A stretch of DNA of 41,509 nt. Source: Methanobacteriota archaeon. GTDB lineage: Archaea; JAADCQ01; Methanopyri; Methanopyrales; Methanopyraceae. A program made the translations under genes and the position numbers. Where the stretch lies: contig JAMOPY010000031.1 in NCBI GenBank assembly GCA_027064305.1, positions 1 to 41,509 of the forward strand. The letters run 5' to 3'. The notes below the pieces were generated by a model. That model was not told the DNA's origin. It made no database searches and saw only the letters and a program-made list of their open reading frames with translations. Shown in pieces: positions 2,114-39,502 of this stretch (positions are counted from its first letter, which is position 1; every line of letters starts with the position of its first letter).

Positions 2114-2968
2114 ATGATAACCGTAGCGGTGCCGAACAAGGGGCGCCTGCACGAGCCGGCGCTGAACCTCCTGGAGCGGGCGGGGATCCGGGTCGAGGAG
2201 CCGATCGGCCGGCGGTTGAAGGCCGAGACCAGCGACCCCGAGGTCGAGGTCATGTTCGTCCGGGCGGCCGACATCCCGCGGCTGGTGGAGGAGGGCGCGG
2301 CGGAGCTGGGGATCACCGGTCACGACCTGGTCGTGGAGTCCGGGGCCGAGGTCGAGGAGCTGCTGGACCTGCGGTTCGGTCGGGCCAGGATGGTGCTGGC
2401 GGTCCCGGAGGAGTCCGACGTGGAGCGGCCGGAGGACCTGGAGGGGTGCACCGTCGCCACGGAGTTCCCGAACATCGCGCACCGGTACTTCGAGGAGGAG
2501 GTGGGCGTGGAGGTGGAGGTGGTCGAGGTGACGGGGGCCACGGAGGTCATGCCGCGGATCGGGGTGGCGGACGCGATCGTCGACCTGAGCAGCACGGGCA
2601 CGACGCTGCGCGTGAACCGGCTGCGCGTGGTGGACGAGATCCTGCGCACGTCCGCCCGGCTCGTCGCGCACCCGGACGCGGTGGAGGACGAGACGGTGCA
2701 GCGGATTCGGCTCTCGCTGGAGGGCGTGCTCAACGCGGAGGGCAAGAAGCTGATCATGATGAACGTGCCGCGGGACCGGCTGGACGAGTTCCGGGAGCTC
2801 CTTCCCGGCGTGACCGGACCCACCGTCTCGGAGCTGCTGAGCCGGGAGGACATGGTCGAGCTGTACGCGGTGGTGGACGAGGAGGAGGTCTCGAACGTCA
2901 TCCTCGAGGCGAAGCGGCTGGGGGCGGAGGGGATCCTGGTCCTGCCCATCGAGCGGATGATCCCGTAA
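2114..2968 (+). CDS. hisG: ATP phosphoribosyltransferase (long form)
   Basis: AVPNKGRL, RAADIP, GITGHDL, ATEFPN, DLSSTGTTL motifs and C-terminal LPGVTGPTVS regulatory domain. Confidence 0.97.
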   Translation: MITVAVPNKGRLHEPALNLLERAGIRVEEPIGRRLKAETSDPEVEVMFVRAADIPRLVEEGAAELGITGHDLVVESGAEVEELLDLRFGRARMVLAVPEESDVERPEDLEGCTVATEFPNIAHRYFEEEVGVEVEVVEVTGATEVMPRIGVADAIVDLSSTGTTLRVNRLRVVDEILRTSARLVAHPDAVEDETVQRIRLSLEGVLNAEGKKLIMMNVPRDRLDEFRELLPGVTGPTVSELLSREDMVELYAVVDEEEVSNVILEAKRLGAEGILVLPIERMIP

Positions 2969-3694
2969 TCACCGCTCTATCAGCTCCAGCAGCGCCGTCG
3001 GGTCGATGTGCCCCCGGTACAGGGCCGTGCCGAGCACCACCCCGTGCGCCCCGGCCTCCCGGACCGTCTTCACGTCCTCGATCGTGGACACGCCCCCCGA
3101 GTAGAGCACGGGGCGCTCCGTGAGCTCCGTGACCTTCCGCACCAGCCCCTCGTCGATCCCGCGCTCCCGACCCTCCCGGTGCACGGCCGTGACCAGGAAC
3201 CCGTCCACCCGCCCCTCGAACCGCTCGACGGCCTCCTCCAGGCCGACCCCGGTCTCCTCCTTCCAGCCCCGGACGAGCACCTGGTGCTCCTCGTTCACGT
3301 CCAGCGCTACGAACGCCTCGACCCCGTGCTCGCGGCACACGTCCAGGATCTCCTCGAACTCCTCCTCGTCGGTGAAGGCCACGGTGCCCAGGATCAGCCG
3401 GTCGGCCCCCAGCCCGGCGAGCTCCTCGGCGCGCTCGGCGGACCGGATCCCTCCCCCGACCTGCACCCCGGCATCGACCTCCTCGCAGATCCTCCCGATG
3501 ACCTCCGAGTTGTCCCCCTCACCCCGCGCCGCGTCGATGTCGACCACGTGGATCCAGGGGAAGAACTCGGCCCACTGGCGCGCGGTCTCCACGGGATCGT
3601 CCGACTCGAACTTGACCCTGCTCGGGTCACCGCCCTCCAGCTGGACGCACTTGCCCCCTAACACGTCGACGGAGGGGATCACGACGAAGGTCAC
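2969..3694 (-). CDS. hisA: ProFAR isomerase
   Basis: IPSVDVLGGKCVQL, HVVDIDAA, QVGGGIRS, SGGVST and GTALY motifs. Confidence 0.9.
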   Translation of the reverse strand: MTFVVIPSVDVLGGKCVQLEGGDPSRVKFESDDPVETARQWAEFFPWIHVVDIDAARGEGDNSEVIGRICEEVDAGVQVGGGIRSAERAEELAGLGADRLILGTVAFTDEEEFEEILDVCREHGVEAFVALDVNEEHQVLVRGWKEETGVGLEEAVERFEGRVDGFLVTAVHREGRERGIDEGLVRKVTELTERPVLYSGGVSTIEDVKTVREAGAHGVVLGTALYRGHIDPTALLELIER

Positions 3695-18635: not shown

Positions 18636-19757
18636 CTACCAGTCCTCCGGGGCGGGCGGCGCGTCCTCGTGCTGGGAGAGCAGGTCCGGAAGCTCCTCCC
18701 TCGCCCGCTCCCGGGCCTCCTGAAGCTCGCGCAGCAGGGCCTTCAGCTCCCGGGCCACGAGCTCCTTGCACTCCCCGCAGGCGACCTCGCCCTCCCGACA
18801 CTTCTCCCGGAGCTTCCGGAGCTCTCCCTCGCCCAGCCGGTCCGCGAGGTGGTAGACCATCAGCTCGTACACGACGCACTCGTCCGGGTTCCCACCCTTC
18901 TCCCGGTGCTCCTCGAGCGTGGCCCCGCCGCCCGTCTTCGCGCTCCAGACCTTCCGCTCGACCTCCTCCGGCGGATCCGTGAGGAAGATGGCCGTCTTCG
19001 GCTTGCTGCTGGACATCTTCCCGCCGGTCAGCCCGGTCATGAACCGGTGGTAGGTGCTCGCGGGCTTGACCAGGCCCTCCTTCTCGGCGACGTCCCGGGT
19101 GAGGCGGAGGTGCGGGTCCTGATCCACGCCGACGGGCACGAGGACGCGGTGCGGTCCCTCGAGCTCCTGGGGGTGGAGGATGTCGGCCGCCTGGACGATG
19201 GGGGCGAACGCGTGCCCCATGCTGGTGTCACCGGAGAAGCCGTACGTGTTCTTGATCGCGTTCCAGGTGAGGCGCCCGGCGAGGAGCAGGGCCATCCGCT
19301 GGACGGTCTTCCGCTCGGACTGCAGGTAGACCTCGCAGCGTTCCGGGTCCAGGTCCAGGCCCAGGGCCGCGTAGTTCAGGATGTACTCGCGGACGGCCAG
19401 ATCGTGCGCCTCCTCGAGGTCCATGCCGCGCGCGTGGTACGCCTCCAGGTCGGCGATGGGGATGTACACCTTGACGCCCAGCTCCCGCTGGTACCAGACG
19501 AGCTGGTCCACGACGGTCTTGTGCCCCAGGTGCATGCGCCCGCTGGGCATCATCCCGCTGAGGACCGAGACCCGCTCGCCCTCCCGGTACTCCCGCAGGA
19601 ACGCGTCGAAGTCCCGGTGCCCGAAGACGATCCCCCGCTCGACCAGCGGGAAGTCCCGGGGAAGGAGGTCCCTAACCTCCTCGTCGATCGGCTCGATCCC
19701 GAACTCCCGGGTCAGCCGCTCGTAGTCGACCTCCTCGACGTCCCAGGGGTCGATCAG
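18636..19757 (-). CDS. trpS: Tryptophanyl-tRNA synthetase
   Basis: HLGH, PVGVDQDPH and KMSSS motifs; the frame extends upstream to IDPWDVEEVDYERL with no ATG/GTG/TTG, so a CTG start at 19757 is inferred. Confidence 0.95.
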   Translation of the reverse strand: MIDPWDVEEVDYERLTREFGIEPIDEEVRDLLPRDFPLVERGIVFGHRDFDAFLREYREGERVSVLSGMMPSGRMHLGHKTVVDQLVWYQRELGVKVYIPIADLEAYHARGMDLEEAHDLAVREYILNYAALGLDLDPERCEVYLQSERKTVQRMALLLAGRLTWNAIKNTYGFSGDTSMGHAFAPIVQAADILHPQELEGPHRVLVPVGVDQDPHLRLTRDVAEKEGLVKPASTYHRFMTGLTGGKMSSSKPKTAIFLTDPPEEVERKVWSAKTGGGATLEEHREKGGNPDECVVYELMVYHLADRLGEGELRKLREKCREGEVACGECKELVARELKALLRELQEARERAREELPDLLSQHEDAPPAPEDW

Positions 19758-26489: not shown

Positions 26490-27029
26490 TCACCCCCACA
26501 TCAGTAACCCTCCCCATACCAGCGGGCATGACACCGACACCATCGCCAGCTCACCCTTGGAGATTTCACGTGGTGGTAAATCCCCTTGTACTTCCCTCCA
26601 GTATTCGTTGATTCTCCTTTGCAACACCAGGAGCGGTACGCAGGACACCATCAACGCCACGACTGCGCCGAGCGCGTCCATCCGCGTCTCGGCGTGGAAA
26701 ATCCCCAAGTTGCCAGCGAAGAAGAACCCGAACCACACCGGGTACAGGACCTTGATCGGGCACGGGTTGAGTCCGGCTTCCTCGAGTAACTCGTTGATCT
26801 CCGCGAACTGCTTCCATACCAGGTAGAGGTTGACGAACGGTACGAAAAGCCCGATCGTCCTAAGCACCACGTTAACGTCGCGGTCCAGGTACTCCTTGAA
26901 GTCCCTCCAGTTGCGGTAGAACCAGTAGAATTGGTAGTACCCTCCGGACGCGACCACGAACAGCGTGGTCCTTCCCAACGGTCGAACGTAGGAGCGACCG
27001 TCCGACAAACCGTGCATCCCCGCCTGCAT
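26490..27029 (-). CDS. DUF4234-like membrane protein
   Basis: GGYYQFYWFYRNW and VPFVNLY motifs; Q..IN..W near the C-terminus; start ATG 27029 or 27017; TTATAA at 27071-27076. Confidence 0.75.
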   Translation of the reverse strand: MQAGMHGLSDGRSYVRPLGRTTLFVVASGGYYQFYWFYRNWRDFKEYLDRDVNVVLRTIGLFVPFVNLYLVWKQFAEINELLEEAGLNPCPIKVLYPVWFGFFFAGNLGIFHAETRMDALGAVVALMVSCVPLLVLQRRINEYWREVQGDLPPREISKGELAMVSVSCPLVWGGLLMWG

Positions 27030-27117
27030 GCGCCCGTGATGGAGAGACCGCCTGACGTCTAGCCAAATAGTTATAAGCACGCGGGTTCGGAAGGGCGGCG
27101 TACGACCCTCAGGAAAG

Positions 27118-27960
27118 CTACCCGGTTATTACGTACTCGAACATATCACATGATACAACTGATGCGTAGATCGCTACTACAGCTGTTACCAAATACACGA
27201 TGATGGAGCCCGACTGTATTCTCGGTGAGCAAATGTACTTACGCCTGGAGAACCATATCCCTATCAGCAACGAATTCGTTAGTACTCCTAAGCTTATTGA
27301 CACGGTTAGGATGTTGTAGTAATACTTGTGAGTCAATAACGTTTCAGTGTTGGTTAAATAAAATATCAGCGTGAACAGCGACACTATCATTCCCCCTACA
27401 AACACATTATAAAACCACATCATAAGAGTTACGTTAAAAGCTGAGTACACGCTGACATACTTGTACATATTGCAGATCTTCTTAATAATGCTGCGGTTTA
27501 CTCTCTGCTTGGACTCGGCTATGAAATTAACACCTTGCCTCTTAAGTCTAAGGTACCACGCTAGCTTACCCAGAATACCCAAGAGACAGGAGTTTACGAA
27601 TATCCAGGTGAGTAGGCTCGTCGATAAGTTCCGTACCCCAGGACACACTGTAGGGCTCTCCCAACCCTTTCCCAGGGCGACGGCAGAGAGTAGTGCTACG
27701 ATGGGTAAACTTATCGGCGGGAAGTCGAAAATACCGTAATACCACACCACCTTCGTAGAGGAAAGCCTAACCCCAGTCTCCTTATCCAATCCACCGTAGG
27801 GACCTACCGTGCCCGATTCCATGGCTTCGTTCACGATCTTCCGTGCCTTCCTCCACTTAACAACAACTATCACTATCGATACGGGCCACAACACTAGTGA
27901 TGCAAAGAAAATGTAAGCGAGGGCGAGGGGCATTAGGTAGGCCTGATGGAGAAAGGACAA
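27118..27960 (-). CDS. Low-GC orphan multi-pass membrane protein
   Basis: 280-codon open frame in AT-rich DNA with about 7 hydrophobic segments; start uncertain. Confidence 0.7.
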   Translation of the reverse strand: MSFLHQAYLMPLALAYIFFASLVLWPVSIVIVVVKWRKARKIVNEAMESGTVGPYGGLDKETGVRLSSTKVVWYYGIFDFPPISLPIVALLSAVALGKGWESPTVCPGVRNLSTSLLTWIFVNSCLLGILGKLAWYLRLKRQGVNFIAESKQRVNRSIIKKICNMYKYVSVYSAFNVTLMMWFYNVFVGGMIVSLFTLIFYLTNTETLLTHKYYYNILTVSISLGVLTNSLLIGIWFSRRKYICSPRIQSGSIIVYLVTAVVAIYASVVSCDMFEYVITG

Positions 27961-28116
27961 TGGGCGTTTAGCCCCCTGTCAACCACAGGTTCGACGTGGC
28001 CGCTAGGATCGAGTTGGTGCTCCAGTTGAACGCGAAGTCGTAGTACCTCGCTATAATCTTGGAGGCAACGGTTTTTCCCGCGTACTCACGTATCTTCGAG
28101 ATGTACTTGACAGTGG

Positions 28117-28245: not shown

Positions 28246-29514
28246 CTACCGGCCCAGCAGCTCGTTGCCGATGACGAAGAGGGAGACGGTCTGGTTGAGG
28301 TGGGCCAGCGCGCCGCTCTCCGTGTTCCCGATCTCCCCGTAGCAGTTGAACCCGATGATGGGCACGTCCTCGCCGATCTCGCTCCGCAGGAGCTTGACGG
28401 CCCTATCCGTGCTCACGATCTCGTGCCGGGCCACGCAGTTGAACACGATCACGCCCGCGATCTCCTCGGGGTTACCCGCCGCCTGGATCGCGCTCTTCGC
28501 CGCCTCCCGGAACGAGGCCTCCAGGTCGCCCGGCTCCATGATCTCCAGGGTCACCCCCTCCGGGATCTTGTTCAGCGCGACGATCGACCCCTCCGCCGGG
28601 TCCGTCTCCACGCTCGTCCGCAGCACGTACTCCCCGTGCGGCGTGGGCAGCTGGATCCCGAACGGGTAGGTGAACAGGGTCTCCGTGGTCACCTCCTCCG
28701 GCTCCATCCCCAGCGCGTCCGCGTAGACCTCCAGGGCCGGCTCCCCGTCCAGCTCCAGGATCCGCGTCCCCTCCACCTTCGTCACCCGGAACTGGTGCCC
28801 CGTGGGCTCGAACCCGTGGTGGATCGCGTGCCCGCACTTCACCGACGTGAACCACACCCACGTGACCAGCGCGTCCGAGTACACCCGTTTGGCGTCGAAC
28901 GCGTAGCACCGCTCGAGCCGCATGTCGTCACCCGTCAGCCCGCCGAGGATGACCGGGAGCGGGCCGCCCAGCTCCTGCATCACCCCGCGCAGCATGGCGG
29001 CCGTCGCCTCCTGATTCTCCAGGCAGCACAGCCCGTCCGGCATCAGAATCACGTGCGCCGGCGCCGCCCGGGCCAGATCCATGTGATCCTGCGCCCGCAC
29101 CAGCCCCGAGAGCGCGACCAGCGGGTTCGCCTCCACGCTCCGCACCGCCTCCGTGAGCCCGCTCCGACCCACCCGCTCCGGCTCCTCCGAGAGACCCTCC
29201 CGGATCGACAGACCCAGCGCCACGTGCCGGGTCAGCTCCATCGCCATCACGACCACCGAGCCCTCGTGGTACCCCTCCGTGGAGATCTCCCCCGAGGACG
29301 AGACCCCGAACATCAGGAACCGCTTCCCCAGGGGCACCCGCGCCCGGATCGCCCGCTTGAGCTCCCGCCGCACCTCGTCCGGATCGTTCGCCGTCGGCGA
29401 GAACACGCAGAACACCGCGTCGATCGACTCCAAGCCCCACTCCATCGCCTCCTCCAGCGCCTCCTCCGGGTCCCCGGACTCCGACACGCCCACACCGCAA
29501 GTCACGTACGACAC
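28246..29514 (-). CDS. FIST-domain (FIST_N plus FIST_C) protein
   Basis: SSSGEIS, LGGLTGDD, ILELDGEPALEVY, FNCVAR and GFNCYGEI...NQT motifs. Confidence 0.9.
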   Translation of the reverse strand: MSYVTCGVGVSESGDPEEALEEAMEWGLESIDAVFCVFSPTANDPDEVRRELKRAIRARVPLGKRFLMFGVSSSGEISTEGYHEGSVVVMAMELTRHVALGLSIREGLSEEPERVGRSGLTEAVRSVEANPLVALSGLVRAQDHMDLARAAPAHVILMPDGLCCLENQEATAAMLRGVMQELGGPLPVILGGLTGDDMRLERCYAFDAKRVYSDALVTWVWFTSVKCGHAIHHGFEPTGHQFRVTKVEGTRILELDGEPALEVYADALGMEPEEVTTETLFTYPFGIQLPTPHGEYVLRTSVETDPAEGSIVALNKIPEGVTLEIMEPGDLEASFREAAKSAIQAAGNPEEIAGVIVFNCVARHEIVSTDRAVKLLRSEIGEDVPIIGFNCYGEIGNTESGALAHLNQTVSLFVIGNELLGR

Positions 29515-29617
29515 CGTTCCTGAACCCCCAAGGGTTGATGGACCGAGCCCGGCTTAAGTAGTCGGAAACGATCCGGCTTAAGCCTTAGTGACGATCCGAC
29601 GACGGGGGGATGGCCGG

Positions 29618-30550
29618 ATGCGGAACGCGATCCTGGGCGTGCTCCTGCTCCTCACCGCGCCCGGGATCGCACACGCCGACGCGTGGACCCCCGTCACCAC
29701 CGTGCACCTCACCGAACGCACCGAGCTCCGAGCCCTCGACCCGAACACCGTCCAGGCCCACCTCACGGTCAAGCTGGAAGGGTACGGCCTCCAGGGCCGC
29801 ACGCAGGCCACCGTCCACGTCCTCCTCCCCGAGGACGCCGAGCTCCTGAGCGCCCGATGGACCCCGGCGAACGGTGCGCCCACCGAGGTCCAGCCCGCGC
29901 TCATCCAGACCGTAACCTGGCCGGGCACCGTCGACCAACTCGCGAGGACGTTCGCGGTCCTCCACTCCGGCTCCACCCCGTACCTGGACGCGCTCGACGC
30001 CCTGTTCCCGAACCGCCAACCGATCCGCTGGCGGCAGCTGACCTTCCTCCTCCCCGTCGAGGGGCACGGGCGGCACGGCGAGCCCCTGGGTACCCTCGAG
30101 CTCACCGCCCACCTACCCACGCACCGAAGCCCCCAGGGACTCCACTGCCTCGCCTGGCCCATCCCGGTGGCGATCAACCCCTTCTACAAGGTGCGCACCG
30201 ACCGCGTGGGCGTCCTGTTCGCGGCCGTGTACGACCCGGAGGCGAACCGCTGGCGCTGGATCCTCCTCAACCCGGACCGGGGGTCCAGCGAGGTGCTCGC
30301 CGACATCGAGGGGATCTCCCTCTACCTCCGGGTCGGGGAGGACGGGGTGGTCGTGGGTGTCCAACCCGCGGGCCAGCCACCCCGGCTCTCGCTCCCGTAC
30401 GTGCCCGTGCTCCTCGTGCTCGAGGTCCCACCCTTCCCGGCCCCGCTACAGCGGGGCGAGCGCGCGGTCCCGCCCCGCCCACCGAGCGCGGGCACCGAGC
30501 CGCATCCGGCCCCGCTGATCCCGATCGTGCCGATCCGTCGACGGAGGTGA
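29618..30550 (+). CDS. Secreted lineage-specific protein with Pro/hydrophobic plus Arg C-terminal tail
   Basis: Signal peptide MRNAILGVLLLLTAPGIAHA; ends PLIPIVPIRRRR. Confidence 0.75.
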   Translation: MRNAILGVLLLLTAPGIAHADAWTPVTTVHLTERTELRALDPNTVQAHLTVKLEGYGLQGRTQATVHVLLPEDAELLSARWTPANGAPTEVQPALIQTVTWPGTVDQLARTFAVLHSGSTPYLDALDALFPNRQPIRWRQLTFLLPVEGHGRHGEPLGTLELTAHLPTHRSPQGLHCLAWPIPVAINPFYKVRTDRVGVLFAAVYDPEANRWRWILLNPDRGSSEVLADIEGISLYLRVGEDGVVVGVQPAGQPPRLSLPYVPVLLVLEVPPFPAPLQRGERAVPPRPPSAGTEPHPAPLIPIVPIRRRR

Positions 30551-30557
30551 CGCCGGC

Positions 30558-31754
30558 GTGGAGCGCGACCCCATCCGCCGCATCCCCATCGACCCCCACC
30601 TCGTCCGCCGGGAGCTGGGCGTCGACCTCCCCACCGCCCGCTACCTCATCCGCACCGGCCTCGTGACCACCGAGGGAGCCCGCGTCCTCCGCCGCGGTCC
30701 CACCACCGGCACCTGCGCGACCGCCGCCGCCAAGGCCGCCGCCATCCGCCTCCTCGAGGGGCGCGCGGTATCCACCGTCCGCGTCCGCCTCCCCATCGGC
30801 GCGATCATCGGCGTTCGAGCGCGCCTGATCGAGGAGGACCCGCCCACCGCCGAGGTCCGCAAGCCCGGGAACGACGACCGCGTGGACGCGACCGCCGGCG
30901 CCCGCATCCGCGCCCGCGCGGAACCCCTCGAGGAACCGCGCGTCGAGGTCCGGGCGGGCCCGGGCGTCGGGCGGCTCCCGGACGGGAGGCCGGCGATCTC
31001 CGAGGCGGCGCGGGCGCAGATCCGGGAGAACCTGGCCTACCTGATCGAGCGGTACGGGACGGGACTCCGCGTCACGATCAGCGTGGTGGACGGCGAGAGG
31101 CTGGCCGAGCGGACGCTGGCCCACCGGCACGGGATCACCGGCGGGATCTCGATCCTGGGGACCAAGGGCCTCGTCGACCCCAACTCGGAGGAGGCGATCG
31201 AGGGCACCATCCGCCACGACCTCCGCTACGTCGAGAACGTCCCCTGCCTCGTCACCGGCTACCGCACCCTCCGCGTCGCCACCGAGGAGCTCGGCCTCCC
31301 CGAGACCGACGTGGTCAACTGCCAGGGCCGCTACGACCTCGCCCTCCCCCTCCTCAAGGAGGGCGTCCCCACCGACGACGGCACCCGCCGCTTCGACCGC
31401 GTCCTCATCCTCGGCATGCCCGGCAAGCTCCTCAAGCTTGCCGCCGGCGTGTACAACACCCACGCCCGCGTCGCCGACGCCCGGTACGAGTCCCTCCTCG
31501 CCCGCCTCGTGGAGACCGGCCACCTCAAGGACGCCCAACGCCTCGCCCAACGCGGCCCCGGCACGATGGTCGCCAAGTTCCTCCGCACCCTCGACCCGGA
31601 CACCCGCCGCGACGTCCTCCAACGCACCTGCGAGCTGATCGAACGCCGCGTCCAAGAGGACCACGACCTCCGGTGCGGGTGCGCCGCCTACCTGAAGACC
31701 GACGACGGGATCGAGGTCGTGACCGGCCCCGAATGGCGCCGCCTCGCGCCGTAA
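30558..31754 (+). CDS. cbiD: Cobalt-precorrin-5B C1-methyltransferase
   Basis: LRRGPTTGTCATAAAKAA, K..ND..D.T.G, G.PAI, GITGGISILGTKG and GMPGKLLKLAAG..NTH motifs. Confidence 0.92.
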   Translation: MERDPIRRIPIDPHLVRRELGVDLPTARYLIRTGLVTTEGARVLRRGPTTGTCATAAAKAAAIRLLEGRAVSTVRVRLPIGAIIGVRARLIEEDPPTAEVRKPGNDDRVDATAGARIRARAEPLEEPRVEVRAGPGVGRLPDGRPAISEAARAQIRENLAYLIERYGTGLRVTISVVDGERLAERTLAHRHGITGGISILGTKGLVDPNSEEAIEGTIRHDLRYVENVPCLVTGYRTLRVATEELGLPETDVVNCQGRYDLALPLLKEGVPTDDGTRRFDRVLILGMPGKLLKLAAGVYNTHARVADARYESLLARLVETGHLKDAQRLAQRGPGTMVAKFLRTLDPDTRRDVLQRTCELIERRVQEDHDLRCGCAAYLKTDDGIEVVTGPEWRRLAP

Positions 31755-31867
31755 CCCCACCGCTTCCCCACGCGACGAGGGCGTTTCCAACCCGAACGAA
31801 GGGAACGCCCCGCGCCCGAACCCGAGCCCCGAAAACCCGCGGGGACCGGCCCACCCGGCCGGGCCCC

Positions 31868-32413
31868 GTGCACGACCGACTACCGCCCGAACTGCGCGAA
31901 CTCCTCAACCGCCTCGAACCGGGCCTCTACACCGCCAGCGCCCGCATCGAGGGACTCCCCGAGCACGACCTCCTCAGCGACGCCCTCCGCGACGCGCTGG
32001 GACGCTCCAGCCGCGCCACCTACCGCGACCTCGTGGACCGCTACCTGGAAACCGTCAACGCACCCCTCGTCCTCCAAGCCTCCGACGCCTTCCAACTCAA
32101 CCAACACGCCCTCCGCGCCCTCCAACGACTCGCCGAACACGTCCCCGTCCTCATCCTCAACCGCGGACACCTCCCCACCGACCACCGCGACCTAACCCGC
32201 GAGCTCGCCGAGATCCCCGGCGCCCACGTGGACGCCGTCTTCGACCACGGAGACACCGTCACCCTCGTCCGCGACCCCCAAACCCTCCTCCGCGCCCTCG
32301 CCACCGCCGGCCTCGCCCTCATGATCCTCCGCGCGACCACCGACAACACCGCCGACTTCTGGGTCCTCACCACCCTCGGACTCGCCGGCCTCGCCGCCTC
32401 CAAACTGGGGTGA
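31868..32413 (+). CDS. Hypothetical protein with two C-terminal TM helices
   Basis: GTG start; consistent codon periodicity; closely coupled to the downstream gene. Confidence 0.6.
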   Translation: MHDRLPPELRELLNRLEPGLYTASARIEGLPEHDLLSDALRDALGRSSRATYRDLVDRYLETVNAPLVLQASDAFQLNQHALRALQRLAEHVPVLILNRGHLPTDHRDLTRELAEIPGAHVDAVFDHGDTVTLVRDPQTLLRALATAGLALMILRATTDNTADFWVLTTLGLAGLAASKLG

Positions 32414-32417
32414 ACGC

Positions 32418-33452
32418 ATGCGAGCCAGAACCCACATCCTCCTCACCTACCTCCTCACCGCCCCCACCCTCGGCCTCCACCACGCCACCATCACCGCCCT
32501 CGCCACCATCCTCCCCGACCTCGACCACCCCCACTCCCTCGCCGCCTCCCTCCTCCACCCACTCGAACTCCTCACCCGCCGAAACCTCCGCCACGCCCTG
32601 ACCCAACGACTCCGACACCGCGGCCCCCTCCACTGCCCCTGGCCCTGGGCCGCCCTCGCCCACACCCTCTGGACGACCGGCCACCCCCACGCCGCCCTCC
32701 TCCCCCTCGGCGCCCTCCTCCACTGCCTCGAAGACGCCCTCACCACCATGGGCGTCCCCATCGCCTGGCACCGAAAAAACGGCGAATGGCGCTCCATCCG
32801 CCTCTCCCTCGCCCGCATCCCCTCCAACCACTGGGACACCCTCCTCCCACCCCTCGCCCTCGCCATCACCTGGACCACCCTCCTCCTCAACCCCACCGAA
32901 CTGTACCAACTCCACCCCAACCCCACCCTCGAACGCACGTACTGGCACGCCCGCGCCACCCTACTCCAACCCTTCCTCCACACACCCGAAAGCCTGAACC
33001 AGGAAGCCCTCCGCGTCACCAACCACGACCGCCTACCCCACCTCCGAGCCACCCTCCGCTACGACCACGGAACGCGCGAAGTGACCGGCCTCTGGACCCC
33101 CACCGGCTGGATGCACGGCGACGACGGACGCTGGTACCCACCCCCCGACCACGGGCTGCGCGTCCTCGAACTCTCCTACCCAAAAGCCCGCTACCGAGTG
33201 ACCACCACCCACCGCTGGCCCCCACCCCGAAACGCGCTCACCCTGCGCGCCCTCCTCGCCTACGAGCGCCTAACGCCCGAGGAGCTCGAGCGCACCGCCA
33301 GACGCGCCGTCCTCCTCGGACTCACCATCCGCCACGAAGACCACCGCACCGGCCGCCTCCTCCTCGAGGGAAGATGGATCACCGGCGCCGCGCTGTCACG
33401 CCTCCCAAGGCCCACGTGGACGAGGCTATCACTCCTCACGATCCGAGCGTGA
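32418..33452 (+). CDS. Membrane metal-dependent hydrolase (YdjM/DUF457-like) with C-terminal extension
   Basis: TH...LPDLDHP...RHRGPLH...LLHCLEDALT..GVP signature. Confidence 0.8.
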   Translation: MRARTHILLTYLLTAPTLGLHHATITALATILPDLDHPHSLAASLLHPLELLTRRNLRHALTQRLRHRGPLHCPWPWAALAHTLWTTGHPHAALLPLGALLHCLEDALTTMGVPIAWHRKNGEWRSIRLSLARIPSNHWDTLLPPLALAITWTTLLLNPTELYQLHPNPTLERTYWHARATLLQPFLHTPESLNQEALRVTNHDRLPHLRATLRYDHGTREVTGLWTPTGWMHGDDGRWYPPPDHGLRVLELSYPKARYRVTTTHRWPPPRNALTLRALLAYERLTPEELERTARRAVLLGLTIRHEDHRTGRLLLEGRWITGAALSRLPRPTWTRLSLLTIRA

Positions 33453-34080: not shown

Positions 34081-35929
34081 CTAGACGACCCAACCGGTGC
34101 CCGCGCCCATGGCGGATAGCAAGATCTTTCCGACCCAAGGCTCCACCAGGGAGCCCAAGGCGAGGAGAGCAGGCCCGAGCACGCCCGGCCAGTACCGGTA
34201 GAACTCCGGCCCGAACTCCTCCACGGCCCGGCACAGCGAGCGCAGGGCCGCGGCGGGGAGAGGCGGCAGCAGGGCGCCCACGACGTTGACCGCGATCCTC
34301 AGCGCCACCCTGTCGAGACGGCGCAGCGCGCCGAGCCCGAGCTCCAGCCTGAGCTCGCGGCGATACATCGCCTCCGCCATTCCCCACCCGGCCCCGATCA
34401 CGATCGTACCGATCGCGCCGGGCCAGAGGGTCGAGGGGCCCCCGAGGAACATCCAGTTGATGAACCTCCTCATCAGCTCCTCCTTGAGCGGCTCCACGAC
34501 GATCCGATCGGCGAGCTCGACGCCCGTCTGGTAGTACTCCCAGACTCCGAGGGCGCGCAGCGCGGTCTTGACGACCAGGTCGTAGAGCCACGCGTAGGGG
34601 TTGAACGAGAGGTACAGCTGGAGCATGAACTGGGCGAGCTGGTAGAGGAAGCAGAGGGTCGCGCCCAGGACCAGCGCACCGGACACGATCCCGGGCACCA
34701 GGGCGACCCACTTCAGGGCCCCCGCCTTGGAGAGCCCGACCATCTCGGCCAGTTTCGTGGGCGAGGGGAGGATCCCGGAACTCTCGCGACCCGCCTGAGC
34801 GCGGGCCGCCTCGAGGAACGCGAGCGCCGGGACCGCCAGCGTCAAGATCCCCAAGGAGTGAAGGAGGTACGAGCCCAGGACGAGCCACGGGTGCAGGAGG
34901 CACCGGACCGCCCTCGCGCTCGCGAGCCCCGACCTCTCGAGGAGATCCCCCAGCCCCTGAGCCCGGGTGGAGAGCTGAAGGCACTCCCACCGGAGAAACG
35001 CCCGCTCGCCGCACTCCCGCAGCAGCTCCACGAGCTCGGCCAGCCGGGAATTGCACCGACGGAGGAACCCGGGGGAAGGGTGCGCAACCTCCAGCAGGAT
35101 CCTACCCTCGGTGGCGTCGTAGACCACCAGCCAGAGGCCCGGCTCATCCCCGAGCCTACCGGACCTCAGCCCGGAGAGCCTGGCGAGATCCTCGCGGGCG
35201 AGGTCAAGCAGCCTCCGAGCCTCCCCGGACGGCAGGGACTCGCGCCGGGTGGCGCCCGTGCGCAGGTCGCAGACGACCCGGTACGCGCCCGACCCATCCG
35301 AGCTCACCAGGTCGAAGGCGACGGTCTCCCCCCTCCACCCCCACCCGGACGAGCAGGTCCCAATCGCCCGCGAGGTCGACGACCGGGGCGAGCGTGGTCA
35401 CCCGCCGGGCGAGGTCCCCCAGGGCGGGAGAGGGGAAGTACGTGACGGGCTCGTACAACCGACCCCCGCGGACGAGGAGCACGGGGAGCTCGCGACCCCC
35501 ACGCACGGGCTCAACGGGCACGGCGCGAAGACCGCGCAAGCGGAGCACCAGGTACACGTGCCCGGGATCGAAGGCCACCCGATGCCGAACGAGCCCGTGC
35601 GGCGTCCGGTACTCGACGAGAGCCTCCTCCGGGGTGACCACCGCGCGGAACCCGCCCCCCGGAAACGGCCCGGCAAGGAGAACGAACTCGCACGCACCCG
35701 GGGCGAGCACGAACACGCGGTCAACGGGCCCACCCTGAAGCGCGTCCAGCCGCTCAACGACCCCGACCGTGGCCACCGGAACCGCCCTACCCAGCCCCTC
35801 CCTCTCCAACTTAACGGCCCGACTCACGACGTCGGGAACGAGCACGGTGACACCGAGGGCCGGAGAGACCACCACGACCGCGACCAGCACCAGGAGCGGG
35901 AGCACGGCGCCGGCCGCGCGGCCCCTCAT
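34081..35929 (-). pseudogene. Secreted/membrane protein split by a +1 frameshift in a G6 run (about 616 codons if repaired)
   Basis: ORF 35204-35929 (signal peptide) joins ORF 34081-35307 as ...VRVGVEG/ETVAFDLVSS if one G is removed at 35328-35333. Confidence 0.6.
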
Positions 35930-36007
35930 CCCCGGCCCCCATCACTCCGGAGACTCATAACTCCTTAAATATCGATCGACTCCCCCGGCGCCCGGGGACC
36001 CGAAGTC

Positions 36008-36604
36008 TCAATCCCCATGCCTGAGTTTCCACCGTTCGAGCTCCCAGAGCACGTCCCGCACCCACTCACCATCCCGAGTCTTATGCAAGAGGAGTTTCCG
36101 AAGCACCCGATCCGCGAACCACGCCGGCCACGGTCCCAGCACGGACCGAGCGAACCCCGGCGCCCGCTCCAGCAATTTCTTGAGCCTGGTCGAGCCCGAG
36201 GGTTGAAGCTCGAACGCCAACGAGAGCACCCGAGCCACCCGCTTGTGGCTAACATCCCCACTCGAAGCCTCCTCCACCAGCTTCTCTAAGGCGGCCCGCA
36301 GGTGCCGGACCGCGAGTCGGGCCAGCCGCAGCACGAACTCTTCGGATTGCTCCTCCAACCACCGCACGAAGCTCACGCTCTCGTTCTCCTTCCCCAGGTA
36401 GAAGACTCGGGGCAGATCAAACCCCTTGCTCCGCACGCGCTTGAGGTAGGCCACGTAGTACGGCCCGTAGGTCCGACCGCCAATCCGCCGGTACGTGGGC
36501 TTTAGCTCCGGCTTAACCTCACGACGGTAGACCTCTCGGAGCACGCGCAGGACGCGGATACGCTCGACCGGGTCTTGGGGGATGGGCACGCCCTCCCAGG
36601 TCAC
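36008..36604 (-). CDS. DUF1678-like Methanopyrus-specific basic protein
   Basis: GVPIP.DP.ERIRVLRVLREVYRR, GPYYVA...YLGK.NESVSFV.WL and GPWPA...RWKL match the recalled DUF1678 pattern; TTTTTAAG box about 50 nt upstream. Confidence 0.75.
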   Translation of the reverse strand: MTWEGVPIPQDPVERIRVLRVLREVYRREVKPELKPTYRRIGGRTYGPYYVAYLKRVRSKGFDLPRVFYLGKENESVSFVRWLEEQSEEFVLRLARLAVRHLRAALEKLVEEASSGDVSHKRVARVLSLAFELQPSGSTRLKKLLERAPGFARSVLGPWPAWFADRVLRKLLLHKTRDGEWVRDVLWELERWKLRHGD

Positions 36605-36634
36605 GGCCCCGGCCCCCTCACGGGCTCGCCCACA

Positions 36635-37660
36635 CCATTGTAATCACCCCGGAGCTTAAAAAAGTTCCGCCTCCCGACGGGCCCCGGACGCGGGGCCGAG
36701 CACCGGTCACCTGACCCTCCGCCATCCCGCCCCCACCGACACGCCGCTCCCGGGCACCCGTAACCCCCGGCACCCACCCTCGCGCCACCACCCGACCCTT
36801 TCCATTGTAACCACCGGGGAGAAGACCCGAACGACCGCACCACCGCCCGCCCGAGACCACCCAATGACGGCGTGGACGTGGGTGCCTACGGCCCGCGCCC
36901 CATCGGCTCCGGACCCTCACACCTCGATAGAGGCACCCGTAGTGACCCGCCCCACGGCATCGCCGCCTTCCCATTGTAATCACCCAAAGAAGGGCCGGCC
37001 CATCTCAGGCGCACCCTCTCTCACCGCCCTGCACGCCCACGGTCCCTTGCGATTACAATGGACGGGAGCCGCCCCCGCCGGAGGCCGGGATCCCGCACCC
37101 CCGGCTCCCAGCGTGACCACCCGGTCCCGACGCACGGCACCCCGGTCACGACCCTCGACCCCGCGACCGAGTACCCGTACCGCACCGGGGGCCGCGGGAC
37201 CCTCCTCCTCACCGCGGTCGACCCGTCGACACCCACGAAACGTCCCGCCGGGATGGACCCGACGACGGTCACCGCGACCCGCGCCCACTGGGGTGGGGCT
37301 GGAGACCACCCCAACCGGGTCGGCGGCTCGCCCCTGCCGGTGGGCCCGTGGGAGCGGGCACCCTCCGGCCGGCGCGGGTCACCGGGTCGGGCATCCTCCT
37401 CCGCCCGCATCCCATTGTAATCACCGTGAAGAAGGCCCCCAAAACGCCGGTGTAGGACCCCACCGGCGCACCCAACCTTCCCGCCCTTCGCGCCCTATCC
37501 CTCGTGATTACAATAGGAAGGGTCGGCCCACACCCGGGGCCGGGGTAGGACCCCCACACACGATCCCGCGCCCGCCCGAACCCGCCCCGCCGAGTCGTCG
37601 CCCGGCGGGCTCGCCTCGGCGTCGTTGGGCCCTCCCTCCTTCGATTACAATAGAAGGGGG
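36635..37660. repeat. Array of seven CCATTGTAATCAC-type repeats in both orientations
   Basis: ATTGTAA(T/C)C forward at 36637, 36804, 36973, 37414; GATTACAAT reverse at 37051, 37506, 37643; flanks are homologous. Confidence 0.85.
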
Positions 37661-37742
37661 CCGCCCCCACCCGAGGCCGGGGCGCGACCCATTCCCAACA
37701 CTTAACTCCCGCCGCCTCACCGTTCCCCCGGGGGTCGCGCGC

Positions 37743-38492
37743 GTGAGGTGGGCGCTCCCCCTGACGCTCGCGATCGTCGTCCTCACCCTCCCCACGACCT
37801 CCCACAGCGCCCCGCCCTGGGTGAACCCGGAGGAGCCGGAGCCGGCCCCGCCGACCGACGCGCCCGAGCTGACGCTCACCCCGGACCAGCTGCGGAAGCT
37901 CGAGGATCTGGGCGTCCCGGTGATCTACCTCAACGGGCGGCCGGCGGTCAAGATCCGGCTCGCCCGGGTGAACGCGCCGGAGATCTTCCACCCACGGGAC
38001 GAGCGGGAGCGCGAGCTGGGCCTCCGGGCCAAGCGGTTCGTCGAGGAGCAGGTCCGGCGGGCCGGCGGCTGGGTACGGTGCCGGGCCTACGGGCTCGGTA
38101 AGTACCGGCGGATCATCGCGGACGTGTACCCGGACGACGAGGACGTGACGCTCGCGGAGCTCCTCGTCGAGCACGGGCTCGCCGAGTGGCGGCGGTACCC
38201 CAAGCCCGACCCGCTGCCCGACTGGTTCCCGCGGGAGTTTCGGGCCCGCGTGGCCCGGGTCGTGGACGGGGACACCCTCTACGTCTACGTCCGGGTCCGC
38301 GAGCACCCCGCCGGTCAGCCGGCCGCCGAGACCCACCGCCGGACCGCCGAGTCCACCGAAACCGCCACCGAGACCGGCCGGGAGGTCGTCATCGGCCGGT
38401 ACCGCACCGGGGTCCCCGCCGCGACCGTCGGCGTCGCCGCCCTCCTCGCGGGGCTGGGACTCGCCCTCCTGACCCTCGCCCGCCGATCCTAA
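37743..38492 (+). CDS. Membrane-anchored thermonuclease (SNase) family protein, circularly permuted
   Basis: IRLARVNAPE, GKYRRIIADVY and LVEHGLA precede RVVDGDTL; signal peptide; C-terminal TM plus RR. Confidence 0.85.
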   Translation: MRWALPLTLAIVVLTLPTTSHSAPPWVNPEEPEPAPPTDAPELTLTPDQLRKLEDLGVPVIYLNGRPAVKIRLARVNAPEIFHPRDERERELGLRAKRFVEEQVRRAGGWVRCRAYGLGKYRRIIADVYPDDEDVTLAELLVEHGLAEWRRYPKPDPLPDWFPREFRARVARVVDGDTLYVYVRVREHPAGQPAAETHRRTAESTETATETGREVVIGRYRTGVPAATVGVAALLAGLGLALLTLARRS

Positions 38493-38515
38493 GCCCCGAC
38501 CCGGGGGCCTCCCAC

Positions 38516-39502
38516 TTGCGGTTCCTCCCCGAGGACGCGGTCGAGCGGCTCCTCGACCCCCGGGAGGTCGTGGAGGTCGTCGAGGAGGCGTTCCGGTGCA
38601 AGCCGGAGAGCGTCCTGCCGGCCAAGACCCTCATCGACCTCGGCGACGGCGACTTCCGCACCATGCCCGCCTACTGCCCGGACCTCGGCGCCGCCGGCGT
38701 CAAGATCGTCAACTCGCACCCGCGGAACCCCGAGCGCCACGGCCTCCCCGCCGTCATGGCCGTCCTCGTCCTCCTCGACCCCGAGACCGGCCGACCCACC
38801 TGCGCCCTGGGCGCCACCACCCTCACCGCCCTCCGCACCGGCGCCGTCTGCGCCGTCGCCACCAAACACCTCGCCGACGACCCCCGCACCCTCGGGATCG
38901 TCGGGACCGGCGTCCAGGGCCGCCACCAGACCCTCGTCCACGCCGAGGTCTTCCCCATCGAGCGCGTCCTGGCGTACGACGCCTCGAAAAAGGCCCTCCG
39001 AGACTTCCGCCGCTGGGCCGAGCGCGAGCTCGGGCTCGACGTGACCGAGCTCAGCGAACCCACGTTCGACCGCGCCGACGTCATCATCACCTGCACCCCC
39101 GGCCGGGAGATCGTCCTCAACCCCGACGACGTCCCCGAACGATGCCTGATCAACGCCGTCGGCGCCGACGCCCCCGAGAAGCGCGAGCTCGACGACCGCC
39201 TCCTCCTCAACGCGACCATCGTCGTCGACGACCGCGACCAGTGCGCCGAGGCCGGCGAGGTCAGCGACCTCGTACGGGACGGCCGCCTCGACAAGGACGA
39301 CCTCATCGAGCTCGCCGAGATCGTCCGCGGAGAGACCGAGGTGAACGACGACCTCGTGATCTTCGACACGACCGGCATCGCCCTCGCGGACGTGGCCGTC
39401 GGCGCCCACGTCGCCGAAAAGGCCGAACGACTCGGCGTCGGGATCGAGATCGAACCCTTCGAACTCCCCTGGACCGAACACACCCGAACCCCGGCCCGAT
39501 GA
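38516..39502 (+). CDS. Alanine dehydrogenase / ornithine cyclodeaminase (mu-crystallin) family
   Basis: GDFRTMPAY, GVKIVNSHP.NP, TALRTGA, GTGVQG, INAVGADAP.KREL and FDTTGIA motifs; TTG start inferred. Confidence 0.9.
   Translation: MRFLPEDAVERLLDPREVVEVVEEAFRCKPESVLPAKTLIDLGDGDFRTMPAYCPDLGAAGVKIVNSHPRNPERHGLPAVMAVLVLLDPETGRPTCALGATTLTALRTGAVCAVATKHLADDPRTLGIVGTGVQGRHQTLVHAEVFPIERVLAYDASKKALRDFRRWAERELGLDVTELSEPTFDRADVIITCTPGREIVLNPDDVPERCLINAVGADAPEKRELDDRLLLNATIVVDDRDQCAEAGEVSDLVRDGRLDKDDLIELAEIVRGETEVNDDLVIFDTTGIALADVAVGAHVAEKAERLGVGIEIEPFELPWTEHTRTPAR

Follow-up and report, generated by a model that had tools for sequence, protein, structure and literature searches.

The DUF1678 gene and the repeat array upstream of it

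The DNA analyzed here, hereafter the window, is the 41,509-nt contig C31 of the Methanopyraceae genome G000, an assembly of 1.21 Mb that is 89% complete. Its minus strand carries, at 36008..36604, a gene with a GTG start that encodes a 198-aa protein of the DUF1678 family (PF07913; 147 bits against a cut-off of 25, E 7.9e-43), which databases name from Methanopyrus and which is predicted to be the likely binder of the sites described below. Upstream lies a non-coding region (36605..37742, 72% GC) in which strains differ by many frame-breaking indels. Seven copies of an AT-rich core had been proposed for this region in the original prediction, and all seven were found where it had placed them. 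The promoter-proximal site P (ATTGTAATC, 36637..36645, plus strand) is located 9 nt downstream of a TATA-like box (36655..36663, minus strand), with the start codon 32 nt further on, confirming that the first copy stands between the box and the DUF1678 start; it is a candidate operator for autorepression. At A-type loci, box and proximal site are arranged in the same way.

The six remaining sites are a ATTGTAACC variant in the same orientation as P (36804..36812, plus), two inward-facing doublets, and a distal site (37643..37651, minus) about 90 nt before a divergent nuclease-family gene. The first doublet is formed by 36973..36981 (plus, ATTGTAATC) and 37051..37059 (minus), and the second by 37414..37422 (plus, ATTGTAATC, with one substitution in strain L098) and 37506..37514 (minus), so that the inverted pairs predicted from the sequence are present, with spacers of 69 and 83 nt. 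A 48-nt direct-repeat module, D1, starts at 37051 and recurs at the second arm of the second doublet and at the distal site. The homology claimed for the doublet spacers also held (37008-37089 against 37465-37544, 73% match), as did that of the extended 18-nt arms (36966-36983 and 37504-37521, 94% complementary), and the modules containing the two doublets (36961..37098 and 37402..37553) are about 73% homologous, a sign of local duplication. The six non-promoter sites have a looser consensus of about 35 nt in common. This common consensus, together with the homology of the two doublets over about 80 nt, indicates that the array grew by local duplication. The even spacing noted for the first three copies (167 and 169 nt) is real in the window but is not kept elsewhere, as in strain L097 the second copy is separated from the third by about 60 nt more and other loci have other spacings.

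None of the six upstream sites forms a hairpin on its own when folded against shuffled sequences (z from -0.83 to +1.55). A long hairpin was obtained for the second doublet (37399-37529, z -3.97) and none for the first (z -1.18). Positions 35000-39000 gave no Rfam match, and the array contains no AT-rich unwinding element, the lowest GC content of any 40-nt stretch away from the promoter being 52%.

The product of the DUF1678 gene was modeled by AlphaFold with confidence (pLDDT 94). The predicted fold comprises an alpha-beta3-alpha N-terminal domain (residues ~9-95) and a helical C-terminal part. Neither the whole model nor the N-terminal domain had a significant fold match (best Z 4.8, to 3hqf, with an rmsd of 3.7 over 80 aligned residues); Foldseek returned nothing better than E 0.24, a sequence profile search of the PDB gave no match, and PHROGs gave weak, scattered matches only. 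No relative was found on viral contigs, and relatives outside the genus are few and distant. No HUH, DDE, serine recombinase or tyrosine recombinase motif stands out among the invariant columns, which include no histidine, and none of 40 longer matches is a fusion to a catalytic domain. One protein of 440 aa, P0039, combines a DUF1678 N-terminal part with an unknown acidic C-terminal region. Besides the gene in the window, G000 has a single further DUF1678 gene, on contig C10, whose protein is 92% identical to that of the window. The two genes differ by 47 synonymous and 16 non-synonymous codon changes, so that the DUF1678 gene is under purifying selection. We found no paper on DUF1678 or DUF6788, and an earlier mention in a genome paper or a 2003 regional analysis is possible; DUF6788, a possible further family of three-stranded beta-sheet DNA-binding domains, is a lead only, from a cluster score of 0.87.

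Several other features of the window were recorded. Two minus-strand ORFs of 241 and 408 aa at 34081-35929 are two frames of one 545-aa gene, which has no Pfam match, is intact in G004 (L074) and continues across the break point in G005 (L011); one extra G in a run of G at about 35328-35333, from either mutation or an assembly slip, is present in the window. ARAGORN called a tRNA-Arg(ACG) at 35064-35155 (minus) inside the 34081-35307 ORF, and this call is probably false. A 280-aa ORF lacking a Pfam match (27121-27960, minus) lies in a stretch of low GC content (48%, 27001-28000) and adjoins a FIST-domain gene (28249-29514).

Distribution of the repeats and their conservation between strains

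If the motif were scattered independently of DUF1678 paralogues, a connection between repeat and protein would be hard to sustain. In G000, however, ATTGTAAYC occurs 11 times, where 0.14 occurrences are expected by chance under an order-4 Markov model, and 10 of the 11 are at the two DUF1678 genes (7 in the window and 3 upstream of the C10 gene, with 1 stray copy). Of the shorter word TTGTAAYC, 10 of 14 occurrences are at DUF1678 genes. A scan of the 89% complete genome with a 38-nt site profile detected copies at the two DUF1678 loci only.

We compared the window with three metagenome contigs that represent the same locus in near strains (L097, L098 and L100). Variable positions made up 1 of 63 in the 9-nt cores, 15 of 140 in the 10-nt flanks and 116 of 933 elsewhere (core versus rest, Fisher P 0.004), and a control restricted to A/T positions gave a similar picture (1/48 versus 42/218, P 0.002). 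Indels between strains change the spacing of the sites and break reading frames. The constancy of the cores, the drift of the spacers and these indels together show that selection acts on the 9-nt word rather than on a hairpin, a phase or a reading frame. A conserved core combined with single sites that do not fold is the pattern of protein-binding sites.

Words outside DUF1678 loci were also noted in two cases. Away from such loci, G001 has 5 occurrences of TTGTATGG and G002 has 14 (post hoc P 0.013), and it is possible that stray sites are avoided. Two TTGTAATC words 119 nt apart, with no DUF1678 gene nearby, are present in G001 (L089, 1997-2123) and may be an orphan pair or a chance occurrence.

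The repeat word varies with the DUF1678 subfamily

The motif is enriched near DUF1678 paralogues, as had been anticipated, and it changes with the protein subfamily. Among 53 distinct DUF1678 genes with enough upstream sequence, classified by the second and third strands of the sheet, the proximal word was TTGTAA-nn in 24 of the 24 genes with an A[YS] + PR/VR sheet and TTGTATGR in 25 of the 29 genes with an AR + GRT sheet. The other 4 of these 29 are stable C-type genes that have the AR/GRT sheet yet use a TTGTGCG word in a different position and arrangement. In nearly every intact DUF1678 gene, the proximal copy overlaps the promoter; one gene of G004 (L078) has no clear site cluster.

Genome G001 is informative in this respect. 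There, 38 of 43 TTGTATGG words are within about 1.1 kb of members of the expanded subfamily, a third copy often lying inside the gene, whereas the single A-type gene has a TTGTAATC pair. It is thus the paralogue, and not the genome, that determines which word is present. TTGTATGG is also the word of a separate lineage that was added later and has a B-like sheet, with 3-4 copies per gene. On a quick protein tree, the four word classes can be placed with 3 changes, the fewest possible. The covariation therefore amounts to no more than 3 independent events, and since gene and sites are copied together, some of it is expected from linkage alone. A broken C-type gene was seen in G001 (L040, ~2830-3000), the remnant of which starts just behind three TTGTGCG sites.

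Gain, loss and replacement at DUF1678 loci

The numbers of DUF1678 matches in six genomes of the order, fragments included, are 2, 19, 2, 3, 10 and 10. Homology between copies extends from the promoter or the distal site to the stop codon or just past it, and in one copy (L118) it begins exactly at the distal site; no fixed left end was seen among copies. The original prediction had proposed looking for strain-polymorphic insertions flanked by target-site duplications. Inserts that vary between lineages were indeed found with their empty orthologous sites, namely a 1.2-kb insert of G001 that is missing in G000, G004 and G005, and a 1.0-kb insert of G004 that is missing at G000 C15 near position 19,050, but neither of these two empty sites, both old, shows a target-site duplication. 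In the G004 insert (L111) there is one site near the left junction, and a one-mismatch site lies 13 nt inside the right junction.

Different subfamily members occupy three loci with the same neighbors in different lineages. Neighbors at orthologous loci are 86-93% identical, versus 58-63% for DUF1678 itself: at the window locus compared with G004, the neighboring YdjM is 86% identical and DUF1678 63%, and at an OsmC-like locus the corresponding values are 93% and 58%, compared with 92% identity between the two paralogues of G000. In a quick tree, DUF1678 copies cluster by lineage and not by locus. Taken together, these sequence comparisons indicate that the gene, its promoter and its sites behave as a mobile or replaceable cassette.

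Rearrangements cluster at DUF1678 loci, and the sites of the window's subfamily are often nested like brackets. An exact site within 600 nt downstream of the gene was present in 2 of the 20 A-type genes examined, no solo doublets or elements were seen, and no partner gene recurs at DUF1678 loci. Tyrosine recombinases (PF00589) were matched in 0 of 6 genomes, two of which are single contigs, so that a XerA-like gene was not detected; Y1 transposases (PF01797) were also matched in 0 of 6, with a control search positive in 6 of 14. Of the transposase and recombinase families, these searches covered PF00589 and PF01797. In four DNA runs, inversion joints were absent and a single weak joint of a deletion was present, from 36680 to 37410 (one contig, with a 23-nt side); the summed contig depth was several-fold to ~20-fold higher over 36035-36643, a figure that does not represent copy number.

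In other lineages, DUF1678 cassettes are found beside genes of the 23.5-31.7 kb stretch of the window, for instance near 26.3 kb (L113) and, with a changed gene order, near 29.7-31.7 kb (L038). The whole 23.5-31.7 kb region is thus a recurrent spot for cassettes and rearrangements.

Discussion

The repeats are most likely binding sites of DUF1678, given their linkage to DUF1678 genes, the conservation of their cores, and the way in which the word follows the sheet type. Direct binding of the repeats by the protein, taken as a step by itself, is highly probable on these sequence-derived grounds. Our preferred reading of the locus as a whole, to which we assign a probability of roughly 0.55, is that DUF1678 is a sequence-specific DNA-binding protein that has no catalytic center of its own, that the repeats are its binding sites, and that gene and sites together form a self-regulated, portable cassette. 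The three-stranded N-terminal sheet would read an 8-9-nt word, TTGTAAYC in the subfamily of the window, with a constant TTGT half common to all subfamilies and a second half that, judging from the covariation, is probably set by sheet residues. From its position, the site between the TATA box and the start codon would repress transcription of the gene itself. Further sites in both orientations arose by local duplication of 35-130-nt modules, as their homology shows, and the strain comparison shows that selection maintains the upstream sites through the 9-nt core alone. Several bound proteins would probably bridge or loop the region, given the multiple sites, their two orientations and the selection on their cores. 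The cassette, consisting of the gene, the promoter and the nearest sites, is gained, lost and overwritten by other subfamily members at the same locus, as the comparison of lineages shows. It is most likely copied by the recombination or repair functions of the host, since neither the cassette nor the adjoining DNA yielded a transposase or recombinase domain. We regard the cassette as a self-regulated and probably selfish unit that marks rearrangement-prone spots. A purely selfish reading fails to explain the selection on the six upstream cores or the association with strand skew described below.

The original prediction had favored an analogue of REP/REPIN-RAYT systems, and there is a real likeness to these systems, as presented in parts of PMC3337134, in the family-specific repeat, the inverted doublets with 70-100-nt spacers, and the clustering beside the cognate gene. 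However, in comparison with the same parts of that account, there is here no palindromic core, there are 10 copies rather than hundreds, and there is no HUH transposase. The REP/REPIN-RAYT reading was abandoned, as single sites form no hairpin, the repeat is not dispersed, and neither an HUH motif in the protein nor a Y1 transposase in 6 of 6 genomes was found; moreover, the multicopy unit here is the gene and not the repeat. A MITE partner, proposed as a second option, fared no better, as solo elements were not seen, nor was a target-site duplication at the two empty sites.

Plasmid Rep-iteron systems also have several sites plus an operator in the promoter of the gene itself. Plasmid iterons are direct and phased, whereas the sites described here are 9 nt long, occur in both orientations, are freely spaced and are chromosomal. 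For an iteron or replicon relic, both a fixed spacing and an AT-rich unwinding element are missing, but a reading as replicator and initiator was retained as an unlikely alternative and is considered below. In the arm-binding domains of the Tn916 and lambda integrases and in AP2 domains, a beta-beta-beta-alpha unit reads about 8-9 bp. The order of elements in the modeled DUF1678 domain appears to be alike; there is, however, no significant structural or profile match, nor an integrase domain.

The pairing of a repeat with a presumed binder also resembles the archaeal replicator-initiator pairs ORB-cdc6 and oriC3-whiP, in which, according to the portions of PMC4010727 that describe them, repeats in both orientations and in variable number lie by the gene of the presumed binder and are paralogue-specific. 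The locus described here differs in having no AAA+ or winged-helix match, no AT-rich region and no skew switch. As far as the available text of PMC8371274 goes, the genus is not mentioned there. A DUF1678 gene with its own putative cognate sites as a replaceable cassette is apparently undescribed.

Could the array be an active or dormant replication origin, bound by DUF1678 as a non-ATPase protein that replaces or supplements Orc1/Cdc6? We consider this unlikely, although it accounts for some of the observations. None of the 6 genomes, two of which are single contigs, has a match to Cdc6_C (PF09079), and Cdc6/Orc1 has been described as absent here and probably replaced, in the relevant parts of PMC3914693 and PMC2643942. 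That the repeats are specific to the paralogue, face both ways and adjoin the cognate gene follows the logic set out in those portions of PMC4010727. At the window locus, no Orc1/Cdc6 gene is adjacent, the neighbors being SNase-family and unknown genes, and DUF1678 has no ATPase or winged-helix match. Cassette junctions correspond to 16 distinct orthologous positions in G000, of which 4 reach or exceed the 95th percentile of the orientation-corrected skew switch (P ~0.008, post hoc; 3/16 with raw skew). The strongest switch of G000 (C15, ~19,050) is where G004 carries a cassette, and the C10 cassette is also in the top 5%. At A-type cassettes, the gene strand of the upstream arm is rich in C in 12 of 15 cases, and the downstream arm scores zero or higher in 10 of 13, counts that come from partly orthologous, hence not independent, loci and from a crude gene caller. 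The skew score of the window locus itself, on the other hand, is -0.43, which has the wrong sign; there is no cassette or site at the strongest G000 switch now; and no link to a cassette was found for 12 of 15 raw-skew peaks of at least 0.3, in a test limited to the loci at hand and to positions away from contig ends. Among the B-type loci of G001 no consistent switch is seen, in a 4-fold-site run for which the gene caller picked shadow frames. A plain preference of cassettes for open spots of this kind may also be at work. Should the origin reading nonetheless be correct, improbable as we hold it to be, this would be a new archaeal replicator-initiator pair in which the initiator is a small non-ATPase beta-sheet protein and cassettes spread, swap and leave skew footprints where they have fired, and the long-sought replacement of Cdc6 in Methanopyrales would have been named.

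Some further observations concern skew. The strongest G000 switch (C15, ~19,028-19,080) corresponds to the empty site of the G004 cassette (L111, 3758-4792); G001 and G002 have a different gene at this position and no switch. In the window, four plus-strand genes at 29588-33452 are increasingly C-rich at 4-fold sites (-0.18, -0.51, -0.60 and -0.82) towards 33.4 kb, and the skew is lost in the block from 34 to 36 kb, a block that is missing between DUF1678 and YdjM in G004. Of 84 contig ends in G000, 23 are G-rich inwards (at least 0.15) and 3 show the reverse, compared with 12% inside contigs; skew centers may often fall in the assembly gaps of this genome.

We regard it as quite improbable that the cassette is a true mobile element, in which DUF1678 would be a nuclease or recombinase of unknown chemistry, or the targeting subunit of an enzyme encoded elsewhere, with the sites serving as element ends or recombination sites. 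Such an enzyme would fit the lineage-specific bursts to 10-19 matches, the sharp 3′ boundary of the homology, its start at the distal site in L118, the L111 insert with sites near both junctions, the bracket-like nesting and the clustering of rearrangements. It would, however, have to act with no detectable catalytic motif or catalytic fusion, in genomes lacking PF00589 and PF01797 matches (6 of 6) and without a recurring partner gene, and the rarity of exact downstream sites, together with the lack of target-site duplications at two empty sites, of solo doublets and of an inversion joint in four runs, also speaks against it.

Very improbable, in our judgment, is an ordinary local transcription factor that serves its own gene and a neighbor, with the expansions as passive duplications of plastic regions. 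In its favor, the promoter is overlapped by site P, the divergent nuclease-family gene is close to the distal site, and two C-type paralogues are kept in place between G001 and G002, but neighbors vary by locus, there is no regulon elsewhere in G000, many upstream sites stand behind the stop of a co-directional gene and not at a promoter, and subfamilies replace each other at one locus.

A few candidates were rejected outright. An invertible promoter was set aside as no flipped copy was present in any locus read, and an Int(N) relic of a split integrase on account of the missing PF00589 (6 of 6 genomes) and of tRNA calls at only 7 of 38 loci scanned, one call being probably false. Binding to RNA, suggested by weak dsRBD rows, is out because the sites face both ways and some of them precede the TATA box. 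Mixed orientation and free spacing do not fit a CRISPR, and a resemblance of the extended A-type site to archaeal ORB boxes was dropped, as it does not extend to the other subfamilies.

The preferred reading, in which DUF1678 would bind its own repeats as part of a portable cassette, provides a first testable function for the DUF1678 family, with a specific DNA word for each subfamily. The natural switches of this word would represent a small protein-DNA code that is open to residue swaps. In addition, the cassette appears to multiply, and to mark rearrangements, in genomes in which tyrosine recombinases and Y1 transposases went undetected.
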